Part shown: one piece after another, positions 7,836-21,230 of the stretch
Layout: every line of letters starts with the position of its first letter
Position numbering within the stretch: position 1 is the first letter of the stretch
NCBI RefSeq assembly: GCF_044324875.1
Contig: NZ_CP172185.1
Source of the DNA: Escherichia coli
Lineage (GTDB): Bacteria > Pseudomonadota > Gammaproteobacteria > Enterobacterales > Enterobacteriaceae
DNA length: 64,000 nt
Direction: 5' to 3' (one strand)
Notes under the pieces: model-generated
What the model was told of the DNA's origin: nothing
The model's database searches: none
What the model saw: the letters and a program-made list of their open reading frames with translations, nothing else
Made by a program: the position numbers and the translations under genes

Positions 7836-8507
7836 ATGCAGTACCCGATTAACGAGATGTTCCAGACCCTGCAAGGTGAGGGTTACTTTACCGGCGTCCC
7901 CGCCATTTTTATTCGTTTACAGGGATGCCCGGTTGGCTGTGCCTGGTGCGACACCAAACACACCTGGGAAAAGCTTGAGGATCGGGAAGTCTCCCTTTTC
8001 AGCATTCTGGCGAAGACCAAAGAGAGTGATAAGTGGGGGGCGGCGAGCAGTGAAGACTTGCTGGCTGTCATTGGTCGCCAGGGATACACCGCGCGGCATG
8101 TGGTGATTACGGGTGGTGAGCCTTGCATTCATGATTTGCTGCCACTGACTGACCTGCTCGAAAAGAACGGTTTTAGCTGCCAGATCGAAACCAGTGGTAC
8201 TCATGAGGTACGCTGCACACCGAATACCTGGGTTACCGTATCGCCAAAGCTGAACATGCGCGGCGGCTATGAAGTGTTGTCACAGGCACTGGAGCGAGCC
8301 AACGAAATCAAGCATCCAGTGGGACGCGTACGTGATATTGAAGCACTGGATGAACTACTGGCAACACTGACCGATGATAAACCGCGAGTCATTGCACTGC
8401 AGCCGATTAGCCAAAAGGATGATGCTACTCGTTTATGTATCGATACGTGCATTGCGCGCAACTGGCGTTTGTCGATGCAAACGCATAAATATTTAAATAT
8501 TGCCTGA
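7836..8507 (+). CDS. queE: 7-carboxy-7-deazaguanine synthase (radical SAM)
   Basis: 223 aa; radical-SAM Cys motif CPVGCAWCDT; position next to CRISPR array as in E. coli ygcF. Confidence 0.92.
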   Translation: MQYPINEMFQTLQGEGYFTGVPAIFIRLQGCPVGCAWCDTKHTWEKLEDREVSLFSILAKTKESDKWGAASSEDLLAVIGRQGYTARHVVITGGEPCIHDLLPLTDLLEKNGFSCQIETSGTHEVRCTPNTWVTVSPKLNMRGGYEVLSQALERANEIKHPVGRVRDIEALDELLATLTDDKPRVIALQPISQKDDATRLCIDTCIARNWRLSMQTHKYLNIA

Positions 8508-8689
8508 TTAAACATTTATAAGCGTTATAAATGGGTGGAACCTGTAAAGACTTCTACTCATTTATATTCTTTGTCGCCTCTGAAAAACCTCCATTTTGCC
8601 CATCCTGAACTAATCATTATCATTCTCTACAAATTTTATGGCGTTAATTTTTCGTTGGAGTGAAAATTATTGCGGTGAAATTTGGTAGA

Positions 8690-8845
8690 TTTTAGTTTGA
8701 ATAGAGTTATTTCAAATATTTATCTTTTTAATCAATGGATTAAATGCTCTTTAACATAATGGATGTGTTGTTTGTGTGATACTGTAAAGTTGGTAGATTG
8801 TGACTGGCTTAAAAAATCATTAATTAATAATAGGTTATGTTTAGA
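8690..8845 (+). promoter_or_regulatory. CRISPR leader (AT-rich) for array at 8846
   Basis: AT-rich tract directly 5' of first repeat; contains motif AGTTGGTAGATTGT 44 bp upstream of repeat 1, also present at the same spacing in the second leader (37409..37422). Confidence 0.65.
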
Positions 8846-9118
8846 GAGTTCCCCGCGCCAGCGGGGATAAACCGCTTCATCTGTCGGGCTAACTGGACAA
8901 AGAAACGAGTTCCCCGCGCCAGCGGGGATAAACCGTCGGTTTGACATCAAAGAAGCCATCAATCAGGGAGTTCCCCGCGCCAGCGGGGATAAACCGGTCT
9001 GGCCATAGGAACAAAGAAATTTGTCTTTGAGTTCCCCACGTCAGCGGGGATAAACCGGACACAGAGCGCCGCTATAGCGCCTATGCCAAGAGTTCCCCGC
9101 GCCAGCGGGGATAAACCA
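8846..9118 (+). CRISPR. Type I-E CRISPR array, 5 repeats / 4 spacers (29-bp repeat GAGTTCCCCGCGCCAGCGGGGATAAACCG, 32-bp spacers)
   Basis: Repeats start at 8846, 8907, 8968, 9029, 9090 (61-bp period); repeat 4 has two substitutions, repeat 5 ends A instead of G. Confidence 0.97.
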
Positions 9119-9571
9119 CCATATAACCCGTTATCTCTTTCTCAAGTTTTTATATTAGCAGTACTTGTAATAAGCAACATATCCACGTAACACCTCATGT
9201 TCAAAATAGTTCTCCATGCCAGAGAAGTTCACAATTATCGATACAAAAAATTAAATTTAATCAAAGTGTTATTTGTATGATTCTTAAATCGTTAAGAAAT
9301 TTTAATATATTATTTTTTTAATATTAATTAATGCCTGTTAATTTTTTCTTTAGAATAACAGTGTATTTTTTAAGCTTATTATTCATTGATTAAGTAATAA
9401 ATCTGGAAATTTGTCTTTGTTTTGAGGCTAATGAGTGATTTTACATAATCGCCTCTATACGCTGTTGATGAATAGTTCTTATGAATAAAGATATCCAGTT
9501 CATACTTTAAGTGAAAATTGATAAAGTGCGATTCGTATTGTCTTTTATTCTAAAGACATCGAGTGTAGTTA

Positions 9572-9709
9572 ATATTCCTTGTAAAAACAGGGATAAACCG
9601 AACTAGTTAAAGTTTTTATTATGTTCCCTGCATCAGCGGGGATAAACCGGACTTGTTATCATTTTTTAAGTTGTCGAACTTATGTTCCCCGCGTCAGCGG
9701 GGATAACCA
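9572..9709 (+). CRISPR. Degenerate CRISPR remnant (2 recognisable repeats at 9621 and 9682 with one 32-bp spacer, plus a partial repeat ending 9600)
   Basis: ATGTTCCCTGCATCAGCGGGGATAAACCG and ATGTTCCCCGCGTCAGCGGGGATAACC read directly; no convincing leader. Confidence 0.65.
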
Positions 9710-9755
9710 TTCAGGTATGTTCAGGCCGGGCAGTTTCCCGCCCGGTCTTCCTCAC

Positions 9756-11234
9756 TTACGCATTCGACCAGCTCTGGATCGAATCTTCATTCCCCAGCTC
9801 ACCATGCATCACTTCATACGATTTTTTCAGGATCACATCAGTGTGTTTGGTTAGGTCTTTGAAAATGCCTTTATTCATCGCGTTGTAGCGTTTGGCGTTG
9901 CTCTCAACAGGCATAAAGATATCTTTCACGCGAACCATTTTGTCGACAGCCGTTGCGTAATCCGGGTATAGCCCCAGACCTACCGCCGTATTAATCGCTG
10001 CCCCCAGGCTTGCACAACCATTAATGGCGTTACGGCGTGCCGGAAGGTTGAACACGTCGGCAAAAATCTGCATAAACAGATCGCTGTTCGAACCGCCGCC
10101 AGTAATGATCACATGCTTTGCAAAGTGATTCATTTCATTACACATATTGTCGTAATTGTTCTTCAGCGTCAGCGCCACGCTTTCCAGTATCGAACGATAT
10201 ATCCATGCGTAATCCATGCTGGAATCAAAGCCAATCATAATCCCGCGTTTGTACGGTTCCCACGGATTGGTCAGCCAGTCCAGCACCGTCATCAGACCAT
10301 TACAGCCTGGCGGCACACAAGAAGCTTTTTTGTTGAGTAAATCTTCCGGTGAAAGATCCTGCGCCCTGGCATCCTGAATTAACGACTCGCCTAGCATGTC
10401 GCGCAGCCAGCTCACCGTCCACATGCCTTTGCGAATACCGTAACCTTCATACAGCAAGGTTTGCGGAATAGAAGACATAATCGGCCAGTACGCTACCGGA
10501 TCTTTCGGCAGTACTTTGCCGTTCATCATCAACGCGATGTAAGTGCCAAGAGAAATTACCGCAGTTTCATCATCCAGTAACCCGGCTCCCAGTGCTTCTA
10601 CCGGTTTATCACTGGTGGTACAAACAACCGGCAGCCCAGCCGGGAAATGTGTCGCCAGCGCGGCTTGAGGAGTGATATGCCCAAGAACAGTGCCCGGCAT
10701 TTGCACATCAAACAGCATATGACGGGGGATATTAAACTTCTCCATGACTGCGGCATCTTCACTCCATGCCCAGGTCTTATAATCCACCGGCCACTGACCA
10801 AAATAGTTGGCGATATTGTCTTTAAACTCGCCGGTTAAGCGATGCGTCAGATAACCCGAAAAAGAGGTGACATATGCCACGTCAGGATTCGTATGTTCGT
10901 AAGGGCGTGTAACGCGTGCATCCTGCCAGCTAATCAACGGCGCAGCTGGCGTGCCATCGGCTTTCAATAACGCACGGCAGCAACGGATGGATCCCAGACC
11001 AATACCGACAATATCTTCTTTATTTCCGGCAAACTGACTCATCAAATCGTGACCGGCAAAGCATAATGATGCCCATAAATCGTCGTCAGGATGTTCTGCG
11101 GTATCGGCATCTGGCGTGTGCATCGGCTGCAATAAGCCTTTGCCTTCGCAAACCACATTACCTTCCAGATCGTACATCACCACTTTTGTGCTCTGACTTC
11201 CACCATCAATCCCTATGATGTATTTTTTCGACAT
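9756..11234 (-). CDS. ygcE: FGGY-family carbohydrate kinase
   Basis: 492 aa; N-terminal IGIDGGSQSTK typical of FGGY kinases. Confidence 0.88.
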   Translation of the reverse strand: MSKKYIIGIDGGSQSTKVVMYDLEGNVVCEGKGLLQPMHTPDADTAEHPDDDLWASLCFAGHDLMSQFAGNKEDIVGIGLGSIRCCRALLKADGTPAAPLISWQDARVTRPYEHTNPDVAYVTSFSGYLTHRLTGEFKDNIANYFGQWPVDYKTWAWSEDAAVMEKFNIPRHMLFDVQMPGTVLGHITPQAALATHFPAGLPVVCTTSDKPVEALGAGLLDDETAVISLGTYIALMMNGKVLPKDPVAYWPIMSSIPQTLLYEGYGIRKGMWTVSWLRDMLGESLIQDARAQDLSPEDLLNKKASCVPPGCNGLMTVLDWLTNPWEPYKRGIMIGFDSSMDYAWIYRSILESVALTLKNNYDNMCNEMNHFAKHVIITGGGSNSDLFMQIFADVFNLPARRNAINGCASLGAAINTAVGLGLYPDYATAVDKMVRVKDIFMPVESNAKRYNAMNKGIFKDLTKHTDVILKKSYEVMHGELGNEDSIQSWSNA

Positions 11235-11260
11235 GATTTTTCTCCTGTAATTTTCTGGAC

Positions 11261-12538
11261 TTACTTGCTGCTAGCCATAGCAGGGGCGCTATCAGCAGTA
11301 CGAATTTTTTGGAACAGCAAAAAGGTAAAGACGATCACCATGGCAAGCGCCGCCATGCCCATCAGCCACATATTGCGGTAGGCTTCTGCAGCGGGCAGGG
11401 TGTCTTGCCAGTAGCCGATAATCGGGTAAACGAAGACATCCGGCAGGAATCCAATCACCGAACAAATACCTACCGTGGTGCCCATAATGTAAGACGGTGT
11501 TCTCGCTTCGCCAGGGCAGGCCCAGTACAGCCCGCGTGAGGCGTAACAGGTGAATCCCAGCAGTAAAATCAGGCCAATCCCCATCGCGACCGATTGCGGG
11601 TTAGAGTTCGTGACGAGCAGGGCAGTTAACGCCAGCAAGCCGAGTACGGAAAGGATTTGGATCACGCGGGTAGGGGATTTCACTTTGCTGTAGGTGGTGA
11701 TAATGCCACCAAGTGGGCCGCACAGTGCGCGGAAGATTTTGTTGATCACAATCCCCATGTAGCTCGCCGCCACCAGCGACATGCCGTACATTTCGGTCAG
11801 ATAGTTGGTGGAGTAACTCAGAATGGCGTAGATGGTGAAGACACCAAAAATCACCATGCTGCAATACCAGGTGGTGCTGATGCGCAAAACAGCCAGGATG
11901 TCGCTAAGCTGGAATGACTGTTTTTCTTCGTTATTGGTATTGCACAGGTTGTTGTTATCGCTAACAAAAAACCAACACAAAATGCCCAGCAGAATGTAAA
12001 CCACACTATAGATAATAATGACCGTTTTCAGGCTGGCGCTGTCATCCGGTGCAAAGCGAGAAAAGACCCACATGGTAAACACCGCCAGCGACATTACACC
12101 GACGCCGCGCAGCCCTTCCATCCAGCCCATAATTTTCCCTTGCTCGCTATGATCGCCCAGCAACGAGGCGGCTTTAATCGACACCGACCACAGCATTAAA
12201 ATAGTGGTTATCGCAAAGGCGACCTGAATACAGAGCATTACCCACAGCGGTGGATATGTTGCCATTAACAGACCCAGTAATCCGGTAATGATCATCGCGG
12301 AAGTAATCATTTTGCGGTGTGAAAATTTATCGGCAATAACGCCGCTGGGGGCATAAAGAATAATAGCCGCAATACCAAAGGTACTCATTATTAAACCTAT
12401 CTCGGTATTGCTGAATCCCATAAATTTCGCCATGGGAATTTGATAAATATAACGTAAATAAGCCAGGTCGAAACTAACGCCGCCGCTAAAACTAATTATC
12501 GCGAGGGTTATCCAACGGCGATATGAGTTGTGTTGCAT
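11261..12538 (-). CDS. yqcE: MFS transporter
   Basis: 425 aa, about 12 predicted TM helices. Confidence 0.85.
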   Translation of the reverse strand: MQHNSYRRWITLAIISFSGGVSFDLAYLRYIYQIPMAKFMGFSNTEIGLIMSTFGIAAIILYAPSGVIADKFSHRKMITSAMIITGLLGLLMATYPPLWVMLCIQVAFAITTILMLWSVSIKAASLLGDHSEQGKIMGWMEGLRGVGVMSLAVFTMWVFSRFAPDDSASLKTVIIIYSVVYILLGILCWFFVSDNNNLCNTNNEEKQSFQLSDILAVLRISTTWYCSMVIFGVFTIYAILSYSTNYLTEMYGMSLVAASYMGIVINKIFRALCGPLGGIITTYSKVKSPTRVIQILSVLGLLALTALLVTNSNPQSVAMGIGLILLLGFTCYASRGLYWACPGEARTPSYIMGTTVGICSVIGFLPDVFVYPIIGYWQDTLPAAEAYRNMWLMGMAALAMVIVFTFLLFQKIRTADSAPAMASSK

Positions 12539-12562
12539 ATCGTATTCCCATTTGTAATAGAC

Positions 12563-12610
12563 AAAAAAAAGAGAAAAGTAAGCCGCCCTTTCAGGTGGAT
12601 TACTTTTCTC
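12563..12610 (-). terminator. Leader hairpin + T8 on minus strand immediately upstream of yqcE start (candidate attenuator)
   Basis: Perfect 11-bp inverted repeat GAGAAAAGTAA / TTACTTTTCTC (12571..12581 and 12600..12610) with A8 at 12563..12570 on + strand, i.e. U8 after the hairpin in the minus-strand transcript; about 22 nt before the yqcE ATG. Confidence 0.55.
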
Positions 12611-12716
12611 AGGTCTCTAGTAATTGCAATAAGAAATAACATGGAAAGCAGTGGTGTTGTGTGAGAGTAATCACGCTTCTGCTTTTTAAAATTATTTGAC
12701 AATTCGAATATCACAC

Positions 12717-12732
12717 TGTGATTACGATCACA
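12717..12732. promoter_or_regulatory. Candidate CRP binding site, TGTGA-N6-TCACA perfect half-sites
   Basis: TGTGATTACGATCACA read directly in the divergent yqcE / ygcW intergenic region. Confidence 0.55.
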
Positions 12733-12788
12733 TTAGCGATTATGCCCTTATGATAAAAATTATCTCCAGTTACCAGAGATAATGAGAA

Positions 12789-12832
12789 AGGTAACTTCCC
12801 TCTCGCGGGGGAAGTTACCTTTCTTTTTTTTT
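12789..12832 (+). terminator. Leader hairpin + T-run on plus strand 25 nt upstream of ygcW start (candidate attenuator)
   Basis: Perfect 12-bp inverted repeat AGGTAACTTCCC / GGGAAGTTACCT with 8-nt loop, followed by TTCTTTTTTTTT. Confidence 0.6.
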
Positions 12833-12856
12833 GCCTTACGGAAATTGGAGCTAACT

Positions 12857-13642
12857 ATGTCAATCGAATCTCTCAATGCGTTCTCAATGGATTTTTTCTC
12901 CCTGAAAGGCAAAACCGCAATTGTTACCGGCGGGAATAGCGGTTTAGGCCAGGCATTTGCCATGGCGCTGGCCAAAGCAGGCGCAAATATCTTTATTCCA
13001 AGCTTCGTTAAAGATAACGGCGAAACAAAGGAAATGATTGAAAAACAGGGTGTTGAGGTGGACTTCATGCAGGTGGATATCACCGCAGAAGGCGCGCCGC
13101 AGAAGATAATCGCCGCCTGTTGCGAACGTTTCGGTACCGTCGATATTCTGATTAACAATGCCGGTATTTGTAAGCTGAATAAGGTGCTGGACTTCGGTCG
13201 TGCCGACTGGGACCCGATGATTGATGTGAACCTGACCGCCGCATTCGAGTTAAGCTATGAAGCTGCAAAAATTATGATCCCGCAGAAAAGCGGTAAAATC
13301 ATTAATATCTGTTCATTATTCTCTTACTTAGGTGGACAATGGTCACCTGCATATTCTGCCACTAAACATGCTCTTGCCGGATTCACCAAAGCTTATTGTG
13401 ATGAACTAGGTCAATATAATATTCAGGTAAATGGTATTGCCCCTGGCTATTATGCAACAGATATTACGCTGGCGACACGCAGTAATCCAGAAACTAATCA
13501 GCGCGTTCTTGATCATATTCCGGCAAACCGTTGGGGCGATACTCAGGATTTAATGGGCGCAGCCGTATTCCTCGCAAGTCCGGCTTCAAATTATGTTAAC
13601 GGGCATTTATTAGTGGTCGATGGCGGTTATTTAGTGCGCTAA
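12857..13642 (+). CDS. ygcW: Short-chain dehydrogenase/reductase
   Basis: ORF 12782..13642; start set at internal ATG 12857 preceded by GGAG; Rossmann TGGNSGLG, catalytic YSATK. Confidence 0.9.
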   Translation: MSIESLNAFSMDFFSLKGKTAIVTGGNSGLGQAFAMALAKAGANIFIPSFVKDNGETKEMIEKQGVEVDFMQVDITAEGAPQKIIAACCERFGTVDILINNAGICKLNKVLDFGRADWDPMIDVNLTAAFELSYEAAKIMIPQKSGKIINICSLFSYLGGQWSPAYSATKHALAGFTKAYCDELGQYNIQVNGIAPGYYATDITLATRSNPETNQRVLDHIPANRWGDTQDLMGAAVFLASPASNYVNGHLLVVDGGYLVR

Positions 13643-13711
13643 TCCATAACGGTGGTTTCTGTTTTCTCTTATTAATGATTATTCCATTTTTATTATCAGG
13701 AAGGAATTACT

Positions 13712-15166
13712 ATGTCTTTATCTCGCGCAGCGATTGTCGACCAGCTAAAGAAAATTGTTGGTGCAGATCGCGTAATTACCGATGAAACAGTATTAAAGAA
13801 GAACAGTATTGACCGTTTTCGCAAATTTCCGGATATTCATGGCATTTATACTTTGCCGATTCCGGCAGCGGTCGTAAAACTCGGTTCCACAGAACAAGTA
13901 TCCCGTGTGCTGAATTTTATGAATGCGCACAAAATTAACGGTGTGCCGCGTACCGGTGCTTCCGCTACCGAAGGTGGGCTGGAAACCGTTGTGGAAAACT
14001 CGGTGGTGCTCGACGGCTCTGCCATGAATCAAATCATTAATATTGATATTGAGAATATGCAGGCCACGGCGCAATGCGGAGTTCCGCTGGAAGTGCTGGA
14101 AAACGCGTTGCGTGAAAAAGGTTACACCACGGGGCATTCTCCGCAGTCAAAGCCGCTGGCGCAGATGGGCGGCCTGGTAGCAACCCGCAGTATCGGGCAG
14201 TTCTCCACACTCTACGGCGCAATCGAAGATATGGTCGTTGGTCTGGAAGCAGTATTGGCTGATGGCACCGTAACACGCATTAAAAACGTACCACGCCGCG
14301 CGGCAGGCCCGGACATTCGTCACATCATCATCGGCAACGAAGGTGCATTGTGCTATATCACTGAAGTAACAGTGAAAATCTTTAAGTTCACCCCGGAAAA
14401 CAACCTCTTCTACGGCTATATCCTGGAAGACATGAAAACCGGCTTCAACATCCTACGTGAAATCATGGTGGAAGGGTATCGTCCGTCGATCGCTCGTTTG
14501 TATGACGCTGAAGATGGCACCCAACACTTCACCCATTTTGCCGACGGAAAATGCGTGCTGATCTTTATGGCTGAAGGTAACCCTCGCATTGCGAAGGCGA
14601 CGGGCGAAGGGATTGCTGAAATCGTGGCACGTTACCCGCAATGCCAGCGAGTGGACAGCAAGCTGATCGAAACCTGGTTTAACAACCTGAACTGGGGACC
14701 GGATAAAGTAGCTGCCGAACGTGTGCAGATCCTCAAAACCGGCAACATGGGCTTTACCACCGAAGTGTCCGGCTGCTGGAGCTGCATTCACGAAATCTAC
14801 GAAAGCGTTATTAACCGTATTCGTACCGAGTTCCCGCACGCCGACGACATCACCATGCTGGGCGGTCACTCCTCTCATAGCTATCAGAACGGCACCAACA
14901 TGTACTTCGTCTACGACTACAACGTCGTTGACTGTAAGCCGGAAGAGGAAATCGACAAGTACCACAATCCGCTCAACAAAATCATCTGCGAAGAAACCAT
15001 TCGCCTCGGTGGTTCGATGGTGCACCACCACGGTATCGGTAAACATCGCGTTCACTGGAGCAAACTGGAACACGGCAGCGCGTGGGCGTTGCTGGAAGGG
15101 CTGAAAAAGCAGTTCGATCCTAACGGCATTATGAATACGGGTACTATCTATCCGATTGAAAAATAA
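13712..15166 (+). CDS. ygcU: FAD-linked oxidase (GlcD / alkyl-DHAP synthase-like)
   Basis: 484 aa; FAD-binding PCMH-type N-terminal domain. Confidence 0.88.
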   Translation: MSLSRAAIVDQLKKIVGADRVITDETVLKKNSIDRFRKFPDIHGIYTLPIPAAVVKLGSTEQVSRVLNFMNAHKINGVPRTGASATEGGLETVVENSVVLDGSAMNQIINIDIENMQATAQCGVPLEVLENALREKGYTTGHSPQSKPLAQMGGLVATRSIGQFSTLYGAIEDMVVGLEAVLADGTVTRIKNVPRRAAGPDIRHIIIGNEGALCYITEVTVKIFKFTPENNLFYGYILEDMKTGFNILREIMVEGYRPSIARLYDAEDGTQHFTHFADGKCVLIFMAEGNPRIAKATGEGIAEIVARYPQCQRVDSKLIETWFNNLNWGPDKVAAERVQILKTGNMGFTTEVSGCWSCIHEIYESVINRIRTEFPHADDITMLGGHSSHSYQNGTNMYFVYDYNVVDCKPEEEIDKYHNPLNKIICEETIRLGGSMVHHHGIGKHRVHWSKLEHGSAWALLEGLKKQFDPNGIMNTGTIYPIEK

Positions 15167-15207
15167 TGTGTCAGGCAGCGTTCCGCGATGACGGAGCGTT
15201 GCCTTTT

Positions 15208-15237
15208 CGGCTTCTCAGGCGAGAAGCCGTTCTTATT
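15208..15237 (+). terminator. GC-rich hairpin (CGGCTTCTC-AGGC-GAGAAGCCG) followed by TTCTTATT between ygcU and ygcS; weak terminator or attenuator
   Basis: 9-bp perfect stem read directly; U-tract interrupted. Confidence 0.35.
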
Positions 15238-15259
15238 ACCGGACAATGAAGGGGTAAAG

Positions 15260-16597
15260 ATGAACACTTCACCGGTGCGAATGGATGATTTACCGCTTAA
15301 CCGTTTTCACTGTCGAATTGCTGCGCTCACTTTCGGCGCACACCTGACCGACGGTTATGTTCTAGGCGTCATTGGTTACGCCATTATTCAGCTTACGCCC
15401 GCCATGCAACTGACGCCGTTTATGGCGGGTATGATCGGCGGCTCGGCGCTCCTTGGTTTGTTTCTTGGCAGCCTGGTTCTTGGGTGGATCTCCGACCATA
15501 TTGGTCGGCAAAAAATCTTCACCTTCAGCTTTTTGCTGATTACGCTCGCTTCGTTCTTGCAATTTTTTGCCACCACGCCAGAGCATCTTATTGGATTGCG
15601 CATTTTGATCGGCATTGGTCTGGGAGGCGATTACTCAGTCGGTCACACCTTGCTGGCTGAATTTTCCCCGCGCCGCCATCGCGGTATTTTGCTGGGCGCA
15701 TTCAGTGTGGTGTGGACCGTAGGCTATGTGCTGGCAAGTATTGCCGGACATCACTTTATTACCGAAAGCCCGGAGGCCTGGCGCTGGCTGCTGGCATCAG
15801 CGGCGTTACCAGCCTTGCTGATTACGCTGCTACGTTGGGGCACGCCGGAATCGCCACGCTGGCTACTGCGCCAGGGGCGTTTTGCTGAAGCTCACGCTAT
15901 CGTGCATCGCTACTTTGGTCCCCATGTTTTACTGGGCGATGAAGTGGCAACGGCGACCCATAAACACATCAAAACATTGTTCTCTTCGCGCTACTGGCGG
16001 CGCACAGCGTTTAACAGCGTCTTCTTTGTCTGCCTCGTAATCCCATGGTTTGTGATTTATACCTGGCTGCCAACTATCGCCCAAACTATTGGTCTGGAAG
16101 ATGCGCTGACAGCCAGCCTGATGCTTAATGCGTTGTTAATTGTGGGCGCGCTGCTGGGATTAGTTCTGACGCACCTGCTGGCACATCGCAAATTTTTGCT
16201 GGGAAGTTTTTTGCTGCTGGCGGCAACGCTGGTCGTGATGGCCTGTTTGCCTTCCGGCAGTTCATTAACGCTGCTGCTTTTTGTTCTCTTCAGCACCACC
16301 ATTTCGGCAGTCAGTAATCTGGTGGGCATTTTGCCTGCGGAAAGTTTTCCTACTGACATTCGCTCGCTGGGCGTCGGTTTTGCCACCGCCATGAGTCGGT
16401 TGGGCGCGGCAGTAAGTACGGGCCTGCTGCCGTGGGTGCTGGCGCAGTGGGGAATGCAAGTCACCTTATTGCTCCTGGCGGCAGTGTTGTTGGTTGGTTT
16501 TGTCGTGACCTGGCTATGGGCACCAGAAACCAAAGCACTCCCGCTGGTGGCGGCGGGAAATGTAGGAGGTGCGAATGAACATTCTGTTAGCGTTTAA
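15260..16597 (+). CDS. ygcS: MFS transporter
   Basis: ORF 15188..16597; start moved to ATG 15260 (MNTSPVRMDD) with GGGG SD-like upstream. Confidence 0.85.
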   Translation: MNTSPVRMDDLPLNRFHCRIAALTFGAHLTDGYVLGVIGYAIIQLTPAMQLTPFMAGMIGGSALLGLFLGSLVLGWISDHIGRQKIFTFSFLLITLASFLQFFATTPEHLIGLRILIGIGLGGDYSVGHTLLAEFSPRRHRGILLGAFSVVWTVGYVLASIAGHHFITESPEAWRWLLASAALPALLITLLRWGTPESPRWLLRQGRFAEAHAIVHRYFGPHVLLGDEVATATHKHIKTLFSSRYWRRTAFNSVFFVCLVIPWFVIYTWLPTIAQTIGLEDALTASLMLNALLIVGALLGLVLTHLLAHRKFLLGSFLLLAATLVVMACLPSGSSLTLLLFVLFSTTISAVSNLVGILPAESFPTDIRSLGVGFATAMSRLGAAVSTGLLPWVLAQWGMQVTLLLLAAVLLVGFVVTWLWAPETKALPLVAAGNVGGANEHSVSV

Positions 16598-17354
16598 AGC
16601 CGAACCGGATGTCGGAATGCTGGCGGAAAAAGAGTGGCAGGCGGCGGCTCAGGGTAATAGCGGACCGGATGTTTCGCTTCTGCGAAGTTTACTCGGTGCT
16701 GATGAACAGGCTGCCGCCGCGCTGCTGTTGGCGCAGAGAAAAAACGGTACGTCGATGTCTTTAACCGCGTTGAGCATGGGGGATGAACGGGCGTTGCACT
16801 GGCTGCGCTATCTCATGGCTCTTGGGTTTGAGGAAGCTGTATTGCTGGAGACGGTGGCAGATCTGCGCTTTGCGCCGGAATTTGTCGCTCGCCATATTGC
16901 CGAATGGCAGCGTCAGAATCCGCTGGATCTGATAATTACCGGCTGCCAAAGCAGCGAAGGGCAGAATGGGCAAACGCCATTTTTGCTGGCGGAAATGCTG
17001 GGCTGGCCCTGCTTCACCCAGGTGGAGCGTTTTACTCTCGACGCGCCGTTTATCACCCTTGAACAGCGTACTGAAAACGGGCTGCGCTGTTGCCGGGTTC
17101 GCTTGCCTGCGGTGATTGCCGTGCGTCAGTGCGGTGAAGTGGCCTTGCCAGTACCGGGAATGCGTCAGCGAATGGCGGCGGGGAAAGCAGCAATTATCCG
17201 TAAAACTGTTGCTGCCGAATTGCCAGCGATGCTGTGTCTGCAACTGGCAAGAGCAGAGCAACAACGCGGAGCGACGCTGATTGATGGGCAAACGGTAGCA
17301 GAAAAAGCGCAAAAGCTATGGCAGGACTATTTACGCCAAAGGATGCAGCCATGA
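16575..17354 (+). CDS. ygcR: Electron transfer flavoprotein beta-subunit-like protein
   Basis: ORF 16569..17354; EtfB/FixA-like; stop overlaps ygcQ start (ATGA). Confidence 0.82.
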   Translation: MNILLAFKAEPDVGMLAEKEWQAAAQGNSGPDVSLLRSLLGADEQAAAALLLAQRKNGTSMSLTALSMGDERALHWLRYLMALGFEEAVLLETVADLRFAPEFVARHIAEWQRQNPLDLIITGCQSSEGQNGQTPFLLAEMLGWPCFTQVERFTLDAPFITLEQRTENGLRCCRVRLPAVIAVRQCGEVALPVPGMRQRMAAGKAAIIRKTVAAELPAMLCLQLARAEQQRGATLIDGQTVAEKAQKLWQDYLRQRMQP

Positions 17355-18211
17355 ATATCGCAATTGTGACAATAAATCAGGAGAATGCCGCAATAGCGAG
17401 CTGGCAGGCGGCGCAGGATTTCAGCGGTTGTACCCTGGCGCACTGGAAGATTGAACCTCAGCCCGCTGTGGCGGAACAGGTGCTGGATGCGCTGGTGGAA
17501 CAGTGGCAGCGAACGCCTGCGGACGTTGTTCTCTTTCCGCCGGGAACGTTTGGCGATGAACTGTCGACCCGGCTGGCCTGGCGTTTACATGGTGCAAGCA
17601 TCTGCCAGGTGACTTCGTTAGATATTCCAACCGTAAGCGTGCGCAAATCCCACTGGGGAAATGCGCTAACGGCGACGCTGCAAACAGAAAAACGCCCGCT
17701 ATGCCTTTCCCTGGCGCGTCAGGCGGGAGCAGCGAAAAACGCCACGTTGCCCTCTGGTATGCAGCAACTGAACATTGTCCCAGGTGCGCTTCCCGACTGG
17801 CTGGTTAGCATAGAGAATCTGAAAAATGTTAGCCGCGACCCATTAGCTGAAGCCAGACGGGTGCTGGTGGTGGGGCAGGGCGGAGAGGCAGATAACCAGG
17901 AAATCGCTATGCTGGCAGAAAAGCTGGGAGCCGAAGTGGGCTACAGTCGGGCACGAGTGATGAACGGTGGCGTTGATGCCGAAAAAGTGATTGGTATTTC
18001 TGGACATCTGCTGGCACCTGAGGTGTGTATTGTTGTTGGCGCTTCCGGCGCAGCAGCGTTAATGGCGGGCGTACGCAATAGCAAGTTTGTGGTGGCGATT
18101 AATCATGACGCCAGCGCGGCGGTATTTTCACAGGCAGATGTTGGCGTGGTTGATGACTGGAAAGCGGTGCTGGAGGCTCTGGTGACAAACATTCACGCAG
18201 ATTGCCAATAA
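17351..18211 (+). CDS. ygcQ: Electron transfer flavoprotein alpha-subunit-like protein
   Basis: ORF 17318..18211; start set at ATG 17351 overlapping ygcR stop; EtfA/FixB-like C-terminal FAD domain. Confidence 0.82.
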   Translation: MNIAIVTINQENAAIASWQAAQDFSGCTLAHWKIEPQPAVAEQVLDALVEQWQRTPADVVLFPPGTFGDELSTRLAWRLHGASICQVTSLDIPTVSVRKSHWGNALTATLQTEKRPLCLSLARQAGAAKNATLPSGMQQLNIVPGALPDWLVSIENLKNVSRDPLAEARRVLVVGQGGEADNQEIAMLAEKLGAEVGYSRARVMNGGVDAEKVIGISGHLLAPEVCIVVGASGAAALMAGVRNSKFVVAINHDASAAVFSQADVGVVDDWKAVLEALVTNIHADCQ

Positions 18212-18217
18212 CGTGCT

Positions 18218-18322
18218 GCCGGATGATCCTGCCTACGGTTCTGGGCTGGGGACTTGTAAGCCTGATAAGACGCGTCAAGCGTCGTATCAGGCGCTGAATG
18301 TCGGATGTGGCGTGCAGCCTAC
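18218..18322. repeat. REP/BIME-type extragenic palindromic repeat cluster
   Basis: GCCTGATAAGACGCGTCAAGCGTCGTATCAGGC palindrome plus flanking GCCGGATG.. and ..GCAGCCTAC units between convergent ygcQ and ygcP. Confidence 0.6.
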
Positions 18323-18357
18323 AAATCACACAAATTCAACTCGTTACGAGTATCCCG

Positions 18358-18933
18358 TCAAAGCAATTTTTTCGCTAACGTCCAGACCCCGGTATTCGTG
18401 GTGGAAAGCGCCACAACACCCGCGTTAATCGCATTACGCGCATCTTCTTCATCGCACACCAGCCCGCCGGCAATCAGCGGTTGGCGGATTTTCTCCGTCA
18501 CCCAGCCTAGCACTTTAGGCATACAGCCTGGCAGGATCTCAATACAATCCGGATTCGATTGCGCAACTTGCTTATCAATGTTGTGAAACGAAATCGAATC
18601 AACAATAAACAGGCGATGAATACAGAAAAAACCTTCCGCTCTTGCCGCTTTTAGCATCGATGCTTTCGTGCTGATAATGCCGTCCGCCTCGGTCACCAGT
18701 TTCAGAAACTGAATCACCACTTCTTTGTTCGATGCGCCTTCCAGCAAATCAACATGAATAAAGGCATATTTTCCGGCGTTTTTAATCTTTTTAACGATAT
18801 TACTGATGGTGCAGATATTGCCGTACAACACGGAAATAAACTGGCATTCAGAGTCGATTGCCAGTTGCAGGCTGGCATTATCTTTAACGGCAGCAATCAC
18901 CGGATTCTGGCGGAGCAGGTGTAAGAGGGGCAT
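18358..18933 (-). CDS. ygcP: GlpP-family putative RNA-binding antiterminator
   Basis: 191 aa; matches glycerol-3-phosphate-responsive antiterminator family as I recognise it. Confidence 0.8.
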   Translation of the reverse strand: MPLLHLLRQNPVIAAVKDNASLQLAIDSECQFISVLYGNICTISNIVKKIKNAGKYAFIHVDLLEGASNKEVVIQFLKLVTEADGIISTKASMLKAARAEGFFCIHRLFIVDSISFHNIDKQVAQSNPDCIEILPGCMPKVLGWVTEKIRQPLIAGGLVCDEEDARNAINAGVVALSTTNTGVWTLAKKLL

Positions 18934-18949
18934 AAATTATCCTTATTAT

Positions 18950-19210
18950 TTATCCAAAGCGGTAGGTGATGCCGAATCCGGAAGGCGGATAGTGCCACTG
19001 TTGTAGCGTTTTTTCATCGCACAGCAAACGGCAGGTGCCGCACTCCAGACAATTACGATAATCAACGTGCAAATCACCCTCCGGTGTGAGCGAAAAAAGA
19101 CCAGCCGGACAAGCGTTAATCAACTGTTGTGCCGTCTGGCGCTCAACGGAGTCTGCCGGAACAATATGTGGCGCATCAGCAGCGCGCCAGAGATTACGGG
19201 CTACAGACAT
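18950..19210 (-). CDS. ygcO: Ferredoxin-like protein (FixX-like)
   Basis: ORF 18950..19246; start set at ATG 19210 overlapping the ygcN stop; 4-Cys motif CLECGTCRLLC. Confidence 0.8.
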   Translation of the reverse strand: MSVARNLWRAADAPHIVPADSVERQTAQQLINACPAGLFSLTPEGDLHVDYRNCLECGTCRLLCDEKTLQQWHYPPSGFGITYRFG

Positions 19211-20502
19211 CGAATACTCCTGACAACATCGCCCGCCAGATGCCACAGGCCATGACGACGTAAATGACGCCAGAATAACTGGCGCAGCGGTGGAACAGGT
19301 TTATCACCCTGATCCCATAAATCACGGGAAATATCCTGCATTAACGCAGGCCACGCCCGATACCAGCCAGGGCGTTGCAAAAGCGCCGGAACATGCTGAT
19401 AACGCTGTAAAACATCCCACAGCAGGCTGCGCTCTACGTTGTGATGATAAAGCGGAAACAGATTTTGCGGCTCGCGGTGCTGGCAGGCGCTTATTAGCGT
19501 TTGTGCCGCCGCCTGCGCGCCAGTTAGCGCCATATCCATGCCGCGCACGGAAATTCCGGTATTGACGCAACTGCGCAACGCATCGCCCACCAGCAGTCAG
19601 CCGTTACCGGCGTATTGCATCGGCATACTGTGTAAGCCACCTTCTGGCACCAGATGCGCACCATACTCCAGTGATTCCGTGTTTTTGATAAGCGGGCGCA
19701 CTGCCGGATGCGTTTTAAAGCGAGCCAGCAGCTCGCTTGCCGGAACACGACTTTGCGTAAGGGAAGAGAGCGGGCAAACAATCCCTAACGAGAGCGTTTG
19801 TTGATTAGTATAAAGAAATGCGCCGCCGGGTAAGTCATCACAGATCCCGCCGCTGAACAGCAACGCTGCGCCTTCGTTATTCTCCAGATGAAAACGTTCT
19901 TCAATAGCGGATGTTTCCAGCGACAGCACTTCTTTGATCCCCAACGCCATCGCTTCGCCAGCAGGACGAGTCACTAACCCGTGACGTTCAGCCAGGACGC
20001 TGTTGGCACCTTCTGCCAGCACCACATAACGGGCGCGGAGAATATCGTCACCACAAATGACACCACACACCCTGCCGTTTTCTTCATACAGCGCATCCAC
20101 CGTCGCACCGGGGATGCATTCGACACCTTCTTTTTCGGCTTCGGCAACCAGCCACGGATCGAACCGTGCACGTAATACACTCCAGGATTCACCGCCGGGC
20201 TGTAAGCTGGAAAACGTCGTTGCGCCATCCGGCGTTAGCAGAGAAAGGCTTTCGTGAGTGATGCGTCGTTCAAGAGGCGCGGTCAGATGAAATTGCGGGA
20301 GGAGTTCCGCGAGCGCATGGGTGTATAAACGCCCGCCGGAAAGATTTTTGCTGCCGGGGATTTCAGCGCGTTCCAGTAACAGAACGGACAAACCTGCCCG
20401 CGCGCAGCGTAAAGCACAAGCGGTACCTGCTATACCCGCACCAATAATAATAATGTCGCAGTTGTCTTCCATGTCATGCCCCAGATATCCAGAACACAAC
20501 AC
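19201..20502 (-). pseudogene. ygcN: FAD-dependent oxidoreductase (FixC / ETF-QO-like) interrupted by in-frame TGA
   Basis: Two track ORFs (19597..20502 and 19201..19590) are in the same frame, separated by TGA at 19597..19599 (..MQYAGNG * LLVGDALRS..); N-terminal FAD fold IIIIGAGIAGTACAL. Confidence 0.6.
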
Positions 20503-20549
20503 CCTAACATGGCGTTACTTAAGGGAAATTGACCGCCGACACACTCTTA

Positions 20550-20915
20550 TCATTCGCCGCGATAGATACAGCCTGCAGTACAGGTTTCTTTTACCATCAC
20601 CGCACTTAACAGCGGCACAACGGGTTTAACCTGATCCCAAATCCATTTTGCTAAAACTTCGCTGGTTGGGTTTTCCAGACCTGGAATATCATTGAGATAA
20701 TGGTGATCGAGGCGCTCATAAGTTGGCTTAAACGCCGCTTTCAGTTCAGCGAAATCGATAATCCAGCCCGTATGCGGATCGACCTCCCCGGTAATTTCCA
20801 GTCGCACCATAAAGGAATGCCCGTGCAGGCGACCACATTTATGCCCTTCCGGGACGTGTGGTAAGCGGTGAGCGGCTTCGAAGGTGAAATCTTTAAATAA
20901 CGTGGTGGACATCAT
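20550..20915 (-). CDS. queD: 6-carboxy-5,6,7,8-tetrahydropterin synthase
   Basis: ORF 20550..20999; start set at [10 protein letters not shown] giving 121 aa; zinc-binding His residues present. Confidence 0.9.
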
Positions 20916-21230
20916 AATTTCTCTACAGGACGATAAAACCGCCGTAGAGTACCGGAAAGGCTGTTTTTTCGCATTATCTAAAACGACTTTGTTGCGCAAA
21001 ATCGCTGATTTATCTTATTGATGGGCAATATTCATTTGTTTTTCATTGGGTTGGTTAATCTATTTTGTTGTTAAAGACTATTGCTAAAACAGGTTAGTCG
21101 ATTTGGTTATTAGTTATCGCTATCCCGTCTTTAATCCACACCGTTCACCCCGTTAACCTTACCTTCTCTTCTGTTTTATGGGCGCTGACAGGGCGCAGAA
21201 ACAGCTTTGCTTACTGGAACATAACGACGC

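Follow-up and report, generated by a model that had tools for sequence, protein, structure and literature searches.

The ygc island reads best as a catabolic block for a small diol- or polyol-type compound, which would be CRP-dependent and inducer-controlled; taken as a whole, we give this explanation about an even chance of being right. Its two divergent operons are both headed by a previously undescribed RNA, predicted from folding and from covariation across three phyla to be a terminator/antiterminator switch. The ETF and FixC/FixX-like genes (ETF/FixCX), which the original prediction had placed at the centre of the system, are optional accessories in related loci and not its heart. The observation behind that prediction was confirmed, and its interpretation was partly supported.

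Gene content and annotation

The following genes were found in the window (the whole stretch of 64,000 nt that was analysed):

9756–11234, minus strand: ygcE, FGGY-family kinase, 492 aa (ORF and NCBIfam)
11261–12538, minus strand: yqcE, MFS transporter, 425 aa (ORF and NCBIfam)
12857–13642, plus strand: ygcW, SDR oxidoreductase, KduD/gluconate-5-dehydrogenase-like, 261 aa (NCBIfam)
13712–15166, plus strand: ygcU, VAO/PCMH-type FAD enzyme, AGPS-like, 484 aa (PF01565 and PF02913)
15188–16597, plus strand: ygcS, MFS transporter, 469 aa in the RefSeq annotation (ORF and NCBIfam)
16575–17354, plus strand: ygcR, divergent ETF beta-like subunit, 259 aa (PF01012, 4.5e-16)
17351–18211, plus strand: ygcQ, divergent ETF alpha-like subunit, 286 aa (PF00766, 2.3e-17, and weak PF01012)
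18358–18933, minus strand: ygcP, GlpP-family (G3P_antiterm) putative RNA antiterminator, 191 aa (PF04309, full length, 1.6e-62)
18950–19210, minus strand: ygcO, FixX-like ferredoxin, 86 aa (NF011993 FixX, 77 bits, cut-off 166)
19201–20472, minus strand: ygcN, FixC/ETF-quinone-oxidoreductase-like gene, interrupted (in-frame TGA at 19597–19599)

All ten ORFs were confirmed with the coordinates and order predicted for them, and all ten family assignments hold at domain level (Pfam, NCBIfam). In the profile search, none of ygcU (PF01565/PF02913), ygcQ/R (PF00766/PF01012) and ygcN/O (FixC- and FixX-like) fell into an unrelated family. The predicted end at 20502 corresponds to a GTG, and the annotated start of ygcN is the ATG downstream of it, at 20472. 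A 286-aa 'ygcW' ORF from 12782 reads through the leader RNA, and the annotated ygcW start is 12857. The gene order was collinear with the RefSeq order of E. coli genomes (ygcE-yqcE / ygcW-ygcU-ygcS-ygcR-ygcQ / ygcP-ygcO-ygcN). No functional study of the island and no reported phenotype were found in the literature.

The best NCBIfam matches of YgcE were XylB (142 bits) and LsrK (138 bits), all under their cut-offs. The closest solved structure was LsrK 5ya0 (5e-29), followed by glycerol kinases. YgcW reached 350 bits against KduD NF005390 (cut-off 369). YgcS matched the aromatic-acid/H+ symporter and sugar-porter subfamilies of NCBIfam under their cut-offs, and its gene was restricted to Enterobacterales loci. 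yqcE was present in 44 of 45 Enterobacterales loci, and YqcE shares 58% identity with the MFS protein of a Photobacterium cluster.

Leader RNAs and CRP-like sites

The region between the divergent operons holds four further features:

12563–12643, minus strand: leader RNA copy 2, yqcE-ygcE (covariance model R1, 59.7 bits, E 1e-8)
12660–12675, no strand assigned: CRP-like site TGTGAgagtaaTCACG (read from sequence)
12717–12732, no strand assigned: CRP-like site TGTGAttacgaTCACA (read from sequence)
12749–12832, plus strand: leader RNA copy 1, ygcW operon (covariance model R1, 95.4 bits)

At the sequence level, each divergent operon shows a CRP-type promoter and a leader predicted to fold by default into a strong intrinsic terminator. 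In copy 1, the antiterminator arms lie at 12768–12774 (AGUUACC) and 12790–12796 (GGUAACU), and the terminator stem (12784–12825, 19 pairs) is followed by a U-run to 12832. The terminator folded at -34.2 kcal/mol (z -6.6) and the antiterminator alone at -6.7. Copy 2 has its antiterminator arms at 12624–12619 and 12604–12599, its terminator at 12610–12571 and its U-run at 12570–12563 (MFE fold -22.3 kcal/mol, z -4.0). This second copy was found upstream of a yqcE-type gene in 32 loci.

Covariation was assessed in 36 leader sequences from three phyla, with 500 shuffles as control. Pairing reached 98% in the antiterminator, where 5 of its 7 pairs had changed on both sides, and 93% in the terminator, where 12 of 17 had done so. 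None of the 500 shuffles equalled this covariation. The leader had no match in Rfam.

Leader copy 2 begins 41.5 nt from the centre of TGTGAgagtaaTCACG. The site is conserved upstream in Klebsiella, Citrobacter and Pluralibacter and may be a class II CRP site. TGTGAttacgaTCACA precedes the start of leader copy 1 by about 41.5 nt, and a promoter-like -10 TATGAT ends at 12754. It is conserved in related enterics and is likewise a candidate CRP site. yqcE-ygcE has been listed as Crp-activated (PMC8085971). The common leader RNA and the CRP-like sites support the predicted co-expression of ygcWUSRQ and yqcE-ygcE; this support does not extend to ygcNOP.

The GlpP-type regulator of the original prediction was recovered as YgcP, a full-length PF04309 protein like B. 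subtilis GlpP. ygcP tracks the leader RNA: both were present in 58 loci and neither in 21. GlpP is the paradigm of antitermination in response to glycerol-3-phosphate (PMC9604022). Like its targets (the glpD, glpFK and glpTQ leaders), the ygc operons have a 5' UTR terminator and a competing upstream hairpin. As the pathway starts with a glycerol-kinase-family enzyme, a phosphorylated inducer is plausible here as well. By analogy, YgcP with a bound phosphorylated pathway intermediate would stabilise the weak antiterminator hairpin. Unlike the B. subtilis system, the ygc-type system spans Gram-negative enterics, Bacillota and Actinomycetota, its regulon comprises SDR/YgcU/kinase and MFS, BCCT or MttB genes, its RNA motif is absent from Rfam, and ligand and RNA binding of YgcP are putative.

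YgcU resembles AGPS

By sequence and predicted fold, YgcU resembles alkyl-DHAP synthase (AGPS) more than GlcD or LctD. Its closest solved relative was AGPS 4bby (3e-40; AGPS/ADPS structures: PDB 4bby, 2uuu), whereas LctD reached only 1e-21. The top 26 Foldseek matches of a predicted YgcU model of moderate confidence (pLDDT 75) were all AGPS (E 1e-29, TM 0.75–0.79). YgcU residues R262, Y398 and H438–440 align with the catalytic AGPS residues R419, Y578 and H615–617 and were invariant across 16 orthologs, down to 71% identity. In addition, YgcE and YgcW would plausibly supply the DHAP-type moiety that AGPS uses.

There are also differences from AGPS. YgcU (484 aa) is shorter than AGPS (658 aa) and lacks its first ~190 residues. 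It is encoded in a catabolic, CRP-controlled operon with transporters, and there is no sign of lipid substrates for the YgcU system. Moreover, YgcU is often translationally coupled to ETF; in anaerobes, ygcU and the ETF genes overlap or abut (e.g. loci L005 and L007). AGPS needs oxidised FAD, with zero net redox change (PMC3509576). As AGPS itself is redox-neutral and requires no acceptor, an AGPS-like active site alone does not demand one, which counts against our explanation.

YgcU had been described as GlcD-like and the system as resembling an ETF-dependent lactate dehydrogenase. YgcU does match the glcD model (143 bits), but a D-2-hydroxyacid dehydrogenase found no support: the alignment showed neither the metal ligands nor the Glu-His pair of LctD (GHxxxxxxH ... 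GEHG; His377, His384 and Glu422-His423, PMC9232219), with the AGPS Tyr and HHH loop in their place and the catalytic Arg kept. E. coli has no counterpart of 'FADox2', an LctD-like gene of the anaerobe clusters that does carry the LctD residues missing from YgcU.

The ETF pair and YgcN/YgcO

YgcR and YgcQ form a divergent ETF clade without the DGDTAQVGP bifurcation motif. Their NCBIfam ETF matches (44 and 79 bits) were all far under cut-off, e.g. 44 bits for YgcR against ETF-beta with a cut-off of 350. YgcR was weakly and about equally similar to all solved ETF-beta chains. Its diagnostic stretch is QSSEGQNGQTP. The nucleotide-site part (EGQNGQTP) falls between AMP and b-FAD types and does not reveal the cofactor content. 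YgcQ matched solved relatives at around 1e-22. It carries the clade signature G(A/V)SGA(A/P)A(L/F) in place of GISGAIQH and retains the Ser-Arg and Ser/Thr positions of the ET-FAD site.

YgcN and YgcO complete the four-protein pattern (ETF beta/alpha, FixC, FixX) of E. coli FixABCX (carnitine), YdiQRST and T. maritima EtfABCX (7koe). Along its entire length, YgcN resembles ETF-QO and the quinone-reducing FixC of T. maritima EtfABCX (7koe_C, 3e-57). Models of the FixC/YdiS type gave 360–380 bits, with 380 bits for an intact YgcN ortholog against the subfamily. In contrast, YgcR and YgcQ reached just 35–74 bits against FixA/FixB and YdiQ/YdiR-type models, and the partner in the ygc island is a VAO-type flavoenzyme and not an acyl-CoA dehydrogenase.

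An ETF pair and a FixC/FixX-like pair thus lie beside a VAO-type flavoenzyme, as predicted. From this, a GlcD/LctD-type hydroxy-acid dehydrogenase in a lactate-dehydrogenase-like complex with bifurcating EtfAB could be proposed, with FixCX making it a FixABCX-type bifurcating module. The glcD and LctD matches of YgcU fit this, as do the adjacency of the ETF and FixC/FixX homologs and the relation of YgcN to the FixC of a bifurcating complex. The gene arrangement also recalls Ldh-EtfAB (LctBCD) of Acetobacterium woodii and other bifurcating oxidoreductase-EtfAB complexes, in which a VAO-type flavoenzyme gene adjoins EtfB-EtfA. In strict-anaerobe ygc clusters, the LctD-like gene follows EtfA in lctBCD order, and some of these clusters add a second ETF pair with a DGDT.Q core (4 of 4) and a ferredoxin domain. 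However, the DGDT.Q core was found in 0 of 64 YgcR-type subunits, the RxFxG motif was likewise missing, YgcQ has neither a ferredoxin domain nor the SPT motif, and the island contains no gene for NADH or ferredoxin coupling. Together with the active site and the far better AGPS match of YgcU, and with the low NCBIfam ETF scores, this makes the bifurcating module highly unlikely.

Core and accessory genes

The invariant core of 85 related loci consisted of SDR, YgcU and FGGY kinase, usually with a GlpP-like protein. The kinase was present in essentially every locus, and YgcW adjoined YgcU in every locus (YgcW identity 64–96%). In Proteobacteria, Bacillota and Actinomycetota alike, the three core proteins are found together, with identities of 64–96%; over the same span, those of the ETF subunits drop to 26–45%. 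Between E. coli and Klebsiella, identity was 93–96% for YgcU, YgcW and YgcP and 58–72% for YgcQ and YgcR. Constraint is strong on the core genes and on the two leaders.

The ETF pair was limited to facultative or strict anaerobes. It was present in 13 of 13 anaerobic Bacillota, 8 of 8 Desulfobacterota and 35 of 43 Enterobacterales loci, and in none of the six aerobic Bacilli, two Saccharopolyspora and one SAR324 loci. FixC and FixX were limited to Enterobacterales, where ygcO adjoins ygcN; FixC never occurred without ETF. The smallest operons (Halobacillus, Thalassobacillus) consisted of GlpP and SDR-kinase-YgcU-transporter. The ETF-less enterics carry aldo-keto reductase, aldehyde dehydrogenase and Fae-like genes.

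These patterns bear on a possible, though unlikely, reading in which YgcU is a redox-neutral AGPS-type enzyme in the catabolic direction. Water would replace the C1 leaving group of a substituted DHAP (an ether oxygen, phosphoester or trimethylammonium), and DHAP would be released. ETF/FixCX would not be a catabolic electron route; its role would be maintenance, holding the flavin of YgcU in the oxidised, active state when conditions are anoxic and reducing. The conserved AGPS residues agree with this, as do complete aerobe operons of transporter, kinase, SDR and YgcU, the confinement of ETF to anaerobes and facultative anaerobes, the weak constraint on ETF/FixCX (lost or truncated while the core stays) and a glycerol-3-phosphate-type sensor, which fits a substituted glycerol phosphate intermediate. 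However, we know of no precedent for ETF as a flavin-reoxidising maintenance system. The LctD-like flavoenzyme and occasional DGDT-type ETF of strict anaerobes look like real electron flow, the additional genes of ETF-less enterics hint at reactive aldehyde products and so would imply an oxidation, and the first ~190 AGPS residues are missing from YgcU.

Substrate and proposed pathway

The predicted substrate was phosphorylated or a hydroxy acid. A phosphorylated intermediate is likely, as the catabolic block includes a kinase; the hydroxy-acid part found no support. Outside enterics, the same leader lies upstream of BCCT transporter genes and, in one case, of an MttB gene, which points to a quaternary-ammonium diol.

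In the catabolic pathway that we favour, the compound would be taken up by YqcE and/or YgcS. YgcE would phosphorylate a terminal hydroxyl and YgcW would oxidise the neighbouring secondary alcohol with NAD(P)+, in either order, to give a dihydroxyacetone-phosphate-like ketol phosphate. YgcU would then work on the carbon beside the ketone by the carbanion/flavin-N5 chemistry of the AGPS family. YgcR/YgcQ, as a non-canonical ETF probably with a single FAD, and YgcN/YgcO would pass electrons from the flavin of YgcU to the quinone pool, independently of oxygen. This branch would be required only when O2 cannot reoxidise the flavin.

Interruption of ygcN

ygcN is truncated in this window: the TGA (minus strand) replaces a Trp TGG found elsewhere in E. 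coli, and 291 of 423 codons remain. The exact 33-mer spanning the TGA was absent from all 5426 complete E. coli genomes, and the version with TGG and identical flanks occurred in 4395. A public entry exists for the shortened protein (SRB26725.1, 118 contigs), so the allele is real and does not stem from a read error. Here, the ETF-to-quinone step is probably lost, with the core intact. One 90% cluster contained 65 truncated YgcN variants (268–373 aa) from E. coli and E. albertii. Given such repeated truncation in natural Escherichia and the fast evolution of ETF/FixCX, this branch may be under relaxed selection and not functional.

The nonsense codon, the truncated variants, the low YgcQ/YgcR identity and the lack of a reported phenotype would also fit a decaying or cryptic remnant in Escherichia, with genes inherited but not used together and ETF/FixCX especially drifting. 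This is quite improbable for the island as a whole. The block was nearly complete (at least 80% query coverage) in 5060 of the 5426 genomes, chromosomal in every case, and 4395 of the 5426 kept the Trp codon of ygcN. The other nine ORFs of the island are full length here, constraint on its core and on the two leaders is strong, and transcription is Crp-responsive (PMC8085971).

Composition and occurrence of the ygc island

The island comprises ten ORFs in three transcription units, all within window 9756-20502:

ygcE and yqcE, minus strand: one unit
ygcW, ygcU, ygcS, ygcR and ygcQ, plus strand: one unit, with ygcS/ygcR and ygcR/ygcQ overlapping
ygcP, ygcO and ygcN, minus strand: one unit

Nine of the ten ORFs are full length, the exception being ygcN. 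The gene order equals the RefSeq annotation of E. coli chromosomes, with the queE-CRISPR region and queD-cysJ as flanks; the island itself is thus already annotated. Of 5426 complete E. coli genomes, 5060 contain at least 80% of the block. The window is 98.4% identical to its best match among complete E. coli genomes and ~96.5% identical to K-12-like strains. As the best match reaches only 98.4%, the lineage of the window lies outside that genome set.

The ygc genes are among the remaining uncharacterised blocks of the best-studied bacterium. Full-text literature searches found no functional study of the cluster. YgcRQ has been termed 'of unknown function' (PMC9329746), and deletion of ygcU left D-serine responses unaffected (PMC13012123).

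The original prediction had described this gene block and assigned a family to each protein. The block was found as described, and domain-level searches bore out all of the families. None of the island proteins reached a named NCBIfam equivalog cut-off. The SDR YgcW scored 350.1 bits against KduD NF005390 (cut-off 369) and 275.5 bits against TIGR01832 (cut-off 338.85). Because these scores are below the curated equivalog cut-offs, YgcW is classed from its sequence as a close paralog of KduD (2-dehydro-3-deoxy-D-gluconate 5-dehydrogenase) and not as KduD. The best NCBIfam scores of the FGGY kinase YgcE were to XylB (142 bits, cut-off 380) and LsrK (138 bits, cut-off 528), and no curated NCBIfam equivalog cut-off was passed for XylB, LsrK, GlpK, GntK, AraB, FucK or RhaB. 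YgcP is a full-length G3P_antiterm protein (PF04309, 1.6e-62).

YgcU resembles alkyl-DHAP synthase

When YgcU was compared by sequence with all solved structures, mammalian and Dictyostelium alkyl-DHAP synthase (AGPS) ranked on top (3e-40 and 3e-38), followed by glycolate oxidase/D-LDH (4e-26) and LctD (1e-21). In Foldseek, the top 26 matches of the YgcU AlphaFold model (pLDDT 75) were all AGPS chains (E 1e-29, TM 0.75-0.79), and D-lactate dehydrogenases followed at ~6e-27. As this fold margin is small, the choice between AGPS and D-LDH was decided by residues.

YgcU R262, Y398 and H438-H440 aligned to AGPS R419, Y578 (Dictyostelium Y508) and H615-617, and all 16 orthologs compared, the most distant at 71% identity, have them unchanged. 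In LctD, His377, His384 and Glu422 are metal ligands and His423 is the catalytic base (PMC9232219). A C-terminal alignment showed GHxxxxxxH and GEHG to be common to LctD, glycolate oxidase 9qgz and FADox2, the LctD-like second flavoenzyme of anaerobe clusters; in the same alignment, YgcU carried neither motif. Its score against the glcD model was 143 bits (cut-off 568). With the AGPS residues kept and the LctD metal and catalytic motifs absent, the proposal that YgcU is an LctD-like hydroxy-acid dehydrogenase was abandoned.

AGPS is marked by an N-terminal region, a gating domain with a hydrophobic tunnel for the C16 chain, and acyl/alkyl exchange activity. YgcU differs in being 484 aa long and lacking the first ~190 AGPS residues, the alignment beginning near AGPS residue 190-215. 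Because this part is missing, we term YgcU AGPS-like and do not file it as AGPS. The redox-neutral mechanism of AGPS begins with deprotonation of acyl-DHAP at C1 by a Tyr; the resulting carbanion attacks flavin N5, and an alcohol then takes the place of the departing acyl group (PMC3509576).

A conserved core and accessory electron-transfer genes

The comparison took in YgcU orthologs (65-99% identity) with their flanks, drawn from 80 species genomes plus five additional contigs, and neighbouring genes were labelled via BLASTP to reference proteins of known Pfam content. SDR, YgcU and FGGY kinase occurred together in every locus; the SDR is 64-96% and the kinase 43-91% identical. This core ranges over Enterobacterales, Photobacterium, SAR324, Desulfobacterota, Clostridia, Negativicutes, halophilic Bacilli and Saccharopolyspora. 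Two loci were left out of the taxonomic range as they look like contamination or mis-binning: one in a Planctomycetota MAG (L008), with a ygcU region 100% identical to E. coli, and one in 'Chryseobacterium sp. 18061' (L032), with an enteric-type cluster (88%).

The electron-transfer genes were distributed differently from the core. An ETF pair followed YgcU in 13/13 loci of anaerobic Bacillota, 8/8 of Desulfobacterota and 35/43 of Enterobacterales, often with overlapping stop and start codons. The loci with no ETF pair were those of six aerobic Bacilli, two Saccharopolyspora, SAR324 and eight Enterobacterales. FixC/FixX was found in Enterobacterales only, always alongside the ETF. In place of FixC/FixX, strict anaerobes have another VAO-type gene that follows EtfA. 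Among solved structures, LctD is the closest to its product, which keeps GHxxxxxxH/EHG. A few strict anaerobes have an extra ETF pair with the DGDT.Q core, and a ferredoxin-type cysteine motif was seen in two of the three EtfA of these extra pairs. Comparison of E. coli with Klebsiella gave 93-96% identity for YgcU, YgcW and YgcP, against 72% for YgcR, 58% for YgcQ, 77% for YgcN and 68% for YgcO. From this distribution and the lower identity, the electron-transfer genes are an add-on tied to anoxic life and far less constrained than the core.

The FGGY kinases (loci L003-L087) fell into two clades, ~47% identical to each other. The kinases of Escherichia, Klebsiella, Pluralibacter and Cedecea make up the first clade, which is nearer to those of Bacillota (56-57%). 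Those of Serratia, Rahnella, Erwinia, Photobacterium, Desulfobacterota and SAR324 make up the second, with 61-78% identity among themselves. YgcU and the SDR did not mirror this split, which suggests that the kinase, or whole clusters, were exchanged horizontally.

The ETF pair is not of the bifurcating type

YgcR matched PF01012 (4.5e-16), and YgcQ matched PF00766 (2.3e-17) and PF01012 (1.4e-6). Against NCBIfam ETF models, YgcR scored 44 bits and YgcQ 79 bits (cut-offs 240-600), and no solved ETF-beta was markedly closer to YgcR than the others (29-48 bits throughout).

Motifs for bifurcating EtfAB (group 2, to which LctBC, CarDE, Bcd-Etf and FixAB belong) were drawn from PMC9232219 and PMC10734219. 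The EtfB stretch DGDTAQVGP serves b-FAD recognition and is missing in non-bifurcating ETFs; further motifs are RxFxG of EtfB (NAD+ site) and SPT of EtfA (PMC9232219). At the aligned b-FAD position, the window YgcR reads SSEGQNGQTPF, and the consensus of YgcR-type proteins is S-x-E-G-(D/Q)-N-G-x-T-(P/G). DGDT.Q was found in 0/64 YgcR-type proteins and in 4/4 of the control, the second-pair EtfB of anaerobe clusters. RxFxG was found in 0/65 YgcR-type and SPT in 2/63 YgcQ-type proteins, neither in the window proteins; this is a weaker test, as the second-pair controls matched poorly too (1/4 and 0/3). RPxFGG, RxGV and GxxSPTxV (PMC10734219) were discarded as tests, since they did not match even in the DGDT-type second ETF pair.

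Judged by these motifs, YgcRQ is not of the bifurcating type. The original prediction had likened the genes to ETF-dependent lactate/hydroxy-acid dehydrogenase complexes and to bifurcating FixABCX modules, and had proposed a check of the second FAD site in EtfA/EtfB; when this was run, the bifurcating DGDTAQVGP was not found in YgcR, and the absence of DGDT.Q from the whole YgcR type argues against such a module. The YgcR stretch lies between the b-FAD and AMP types, as it has 'QT' in common with the AMP-binding IDDDCNQTGQ of human and Paracoccus; being intermediate, it does not allow the cofactor content of YgcRQ to be read from sequence. YgcQ-type subunits retain the Ser-Arg and Ser/Thr positions of the ET-FAD site. 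Their GISGAIQH is replaced by G(A/V)SGA(A/P)A(L/F) in 53/63 members, with GASGAAAL in YgcQ, and this replacement defines a separate clade.

A truncated ygcN allele

An orthologous YgcN scored 380 bits as FixC-type (cut-off 466) and matched T. maritima FixC 7koe_C at 3e-57 over residues 3-419, which makes it a clear FixC relative. YgcO scored 77 bits to FixX (cut-off 166). In the window, ygcN has an in-frame TGA at 19597-19599 ('...YAGNG*LLVGDA'), and YgcN ends after residue 291 (allele W292*). The 33-mer around this TGA was found in 0 complete E. coli genomes, and the TGG version in 4395.

A sequencing error was considered and rejected, as 118 public contigs carry the exact truncated protein (291 aa), which is recorded for E. 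coli. Selenocysteine was rejected as well, since other E. coli have TGG (Trp) with identical flanks. The 90% cluster of the 291-aa product holds 65 other truncated forms from E. coli and E. albertii. Given these and the 118 public contigs, the allele is genuine, and truncation of YgcN recurs in nature. The anaerobic electron outlet is probably genetically broken in this strain.

Leader RNA and control of the island

In three phyla, the SDR gene is preceded by an element of ~80 nt with the consensus cAGUUACyAGAGAnnAUGAGAAArGUrACUUCCC-loop-GGGAAGUurCyUUUCUc-U8. The elements of the window are as follows:

12768-12774, plus strand: leader copy 1 (before ygcW), antiterminator arm, pairing alternatively with 12790-12796 (5' arm of the terminator)
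12784-12825 and U-run, plus strand: leader copy 1, 19-bp intrinsic terminator (-34.2 kcal/mol, z -6.6)
about 12564-12643, minus strand: leader copy 2, leader of yqcE-ygcE (59.7 bits, covariance model)
12660-12675, between the leaders: near-consensus CRP-like site TGTGAgagtaaTCACG, from sequence
12717-12732, between the leaders: near-consensus CRP-like site TGTGAttacgaTCACA, from sequence

The antiterminator hairpin is weak (-6.7 kcal/mol) and has a conserved AGAGA...GAGAAA loop. Over 36 distinct sequences, the antiterminator was 98% paired with both sides changed in 5/7 pairs, and the terminator was 93% paired with both sides changed in 12/17 pairs. None of 500 shuffles reached the real values, and slid controls were 19-66% paired. 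Three-way covariation links columns 35, 53 and 89, the pattern that mutually exclusive helices should give.

Matching second copies were found by the covariance model in other Enterobacterales. In other phyla, extra leaders precede BCCT transporter genes, YgcU, a YqcE-type MFS gene and one MttB gene. The ygcNOP operon lacks a leader, in line with its coding for the regulator. Leader and GlpP-like gene were both present in 58 loci and both absent in 21, and the seven exceptions are cut contigs or divergent copies. A leader regex gave 0 matches in 0.8 Mb of shuffled sequence. An Rfam scan of 8000-22000 (E <= 1) gave chance-level matches alone, none over the leaders.

In B. subtilis, G3P is the ligand of GlpP, and GlpP targets combine a promoter with a GlpP site and an inherent terminator in the 5' UTR (PMC9604022). 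The ygc leaders have the same architecture, and the island combines a PF04309 protein with two leaders whose mutually exclusive helices are backed by covariation. By analogy, we infer that YgcP binds the leader RNA in a ligand-responsive manner. The leader RNA would take GlpP-type antitermination into Gram-negative bacteria and Actinomycetota. It may also serve as a screening tool: a ygcW-leader reporter in a ygcP+ strain should respond to the true inducer.

Both CRP-like sites are centred ~41.5 nt from the first base of their respective leader and are conserved in related genera. This spacing would fit class II CRP promoters, and yqcE-ygcE is listed as Crp-activated in a transcriptome study (PMC8085971).

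Substrate clues and a candidate pathway

In non-enteric loci, the transporter gene, often under the ygc-type leader, is of BCCT type; the proteins scored ~316-321 bits against BCCT/glycine-betaine models, below the cut-off, and lower against choline and carnitine models, also below the cut-off. Other non-enteric loci have an OpuAC-type binding protein as transporter gene. Non-pyrrolysine MttB-family methyltransferases and corrinoid/pterin-binding proteins adjoin the clusters in Desulfobacterota, some Bacillota and an actinomycete MAG. The smallest operons, seen in Halobacillus and Thalassobacillus, consist of GlpP and SDR-kinase-YgcU-BCCT. In one Alkalihalobacillus cluster, genes for an aspartase-like lyase, an aldehyde dehydrogenase and a Zn-alcohol dehydrogenase are also present. 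Taken together, the transporters, MttB, the smallest operons and the added enzymes suggest that the non-enteric substrate is a quaternary-ammonium compound with a glycerol-like handle. The BCCT and MttB genes linked to the clusters of other phyla reduce the candidates to quaternary-ammonium diols. As YgcU is 65-73% identical and its active-site residues are invariant, E. coli probably runs this chemistry or a close variant of it, with uptake through MFS carriers. YqcE is 58% identical to the MFS protein of the Photobacterium cluster, which also holds a BCCT gene.

In enterics that lack the ETF, the clusters also encode an aldo-keto reductase (YghZ/YdjG-like), an aldehyde dehydrogenase and a homolog of the formaldehyde-activating enzyme (Fae). 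The last was found in two clusters with no ETF/FixCX (135 bits, curated cut-off 118):

L037, 2386-2889, minus strand: Fae homolog
L048, 2298-2801, minus strand: Fae homolog

In both, it adjoins the aldo-keto reductase, the aldehyde dehydrogenase and a GcvA/choline-sulfate-regulator-like LysR gene. Some Clostridia clusters (L067 14670-15437, L087 9450-10337) have a SurE-like nucleotidase or a DUF89-type 'damage-control phosphatase', which may hint at a phosphorylated side-product needing clearance. These accessory genes of ETF-less enterics and Clostridia do not decide the pathway chemistry.

Of the original interpretation, an ETF/FixCX-linked flavoenzyme system with a phosphorylated intermediate was retained, and the LctD-like hydroxy-acid dehydrogenase with a bifurcating FixABCX module was not. 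We see about an even chance that the island encodes a kinase/SDR/AGPS-like pathway with an optional anaerobic electron outlet, controlled by CRP and YgcP-dependent antitermination. The search target thereby shifts from a hydroxy acid with a bifurcating complex to a compound for kinase, SDR and AGPS-like flavoenzyme. New here are the view of YgcU as AGPS-like, the division of the genes into a core and accessories, the ETF clade of non-bifurcating type, the leader RNA and the link to quaternary-amine transport.

A more specific proposal, which we regard as unlikely, is that the core (FGGY kinase, SDR, YgcU, GlpP-like sensor and leader) forms an undescribed 'glp-like' pathway for 1-substituted glycerols. 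Context in its support is that BCCT genes and one MttB gene share the leader and several clusters have OpuAC. Phosphorylation and C2 oxidation would give a substituted DHAP, from which YgcU, in reverse AGPS chemistry, would remove the substituent by hydrolysis or oxidation. This substituent would be a quaternary-ammonium head group in marine, halophilic and anaerobic bacteria; E. coli would use identical chemistry with MFS uptake. One candidate substrate would be glyceryl-trimethylhomoserine from deacylated betaine lipids (DGTS), and naming a glyceryl ether such as deacylated DGTS is speculation. The alcohol and aldehyde dehydrogenases and the aspartase-like lyase of Alkalihalobacillus could convert trimethylhomoserine to fumarate and trimethylamine.

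To our knowledge, AGPS-type flavin chemistry is otherwise recorded in ether-lipid synthesis alone. If an AGPS-like enzyme does cleave the substituent of a DHAP derivative, this would be a new catabolic use of that chemistry, and it could explain the breakdown of betaine-lipid head groups or similar osmolytes.

Further features of the interval

The annotated and conserved start of ygcW is 12857. A mechanically called 'ygcW' ORF of 286 aa starts at an ATG inside the leader RNA (12782-12856 stretch) and reads across the terminator, so ORF callers may over-extend this gene.

The convergent ygcQ/ygcP gap (18259-18341, minus strand) gave a sub-threshold Rfam naRNA4 match of 29.5 bits (gathering score 59.5), which is taken to be a putative REP-type repeat.

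A CRISPR array lies between queE and ygcE (window 8834-9121 and 9609-9713). It has five type I-E-like repeats at 61-nt spacing, GAGTTCCCCGCGCCAGCGGGGATAAACCG, and two degenerate repeats ~500 nt beyond. The interval is AT-rich (GC 0.36-0.38), and RefSeq annotates a CRISPR at the matching place in other E. coli.
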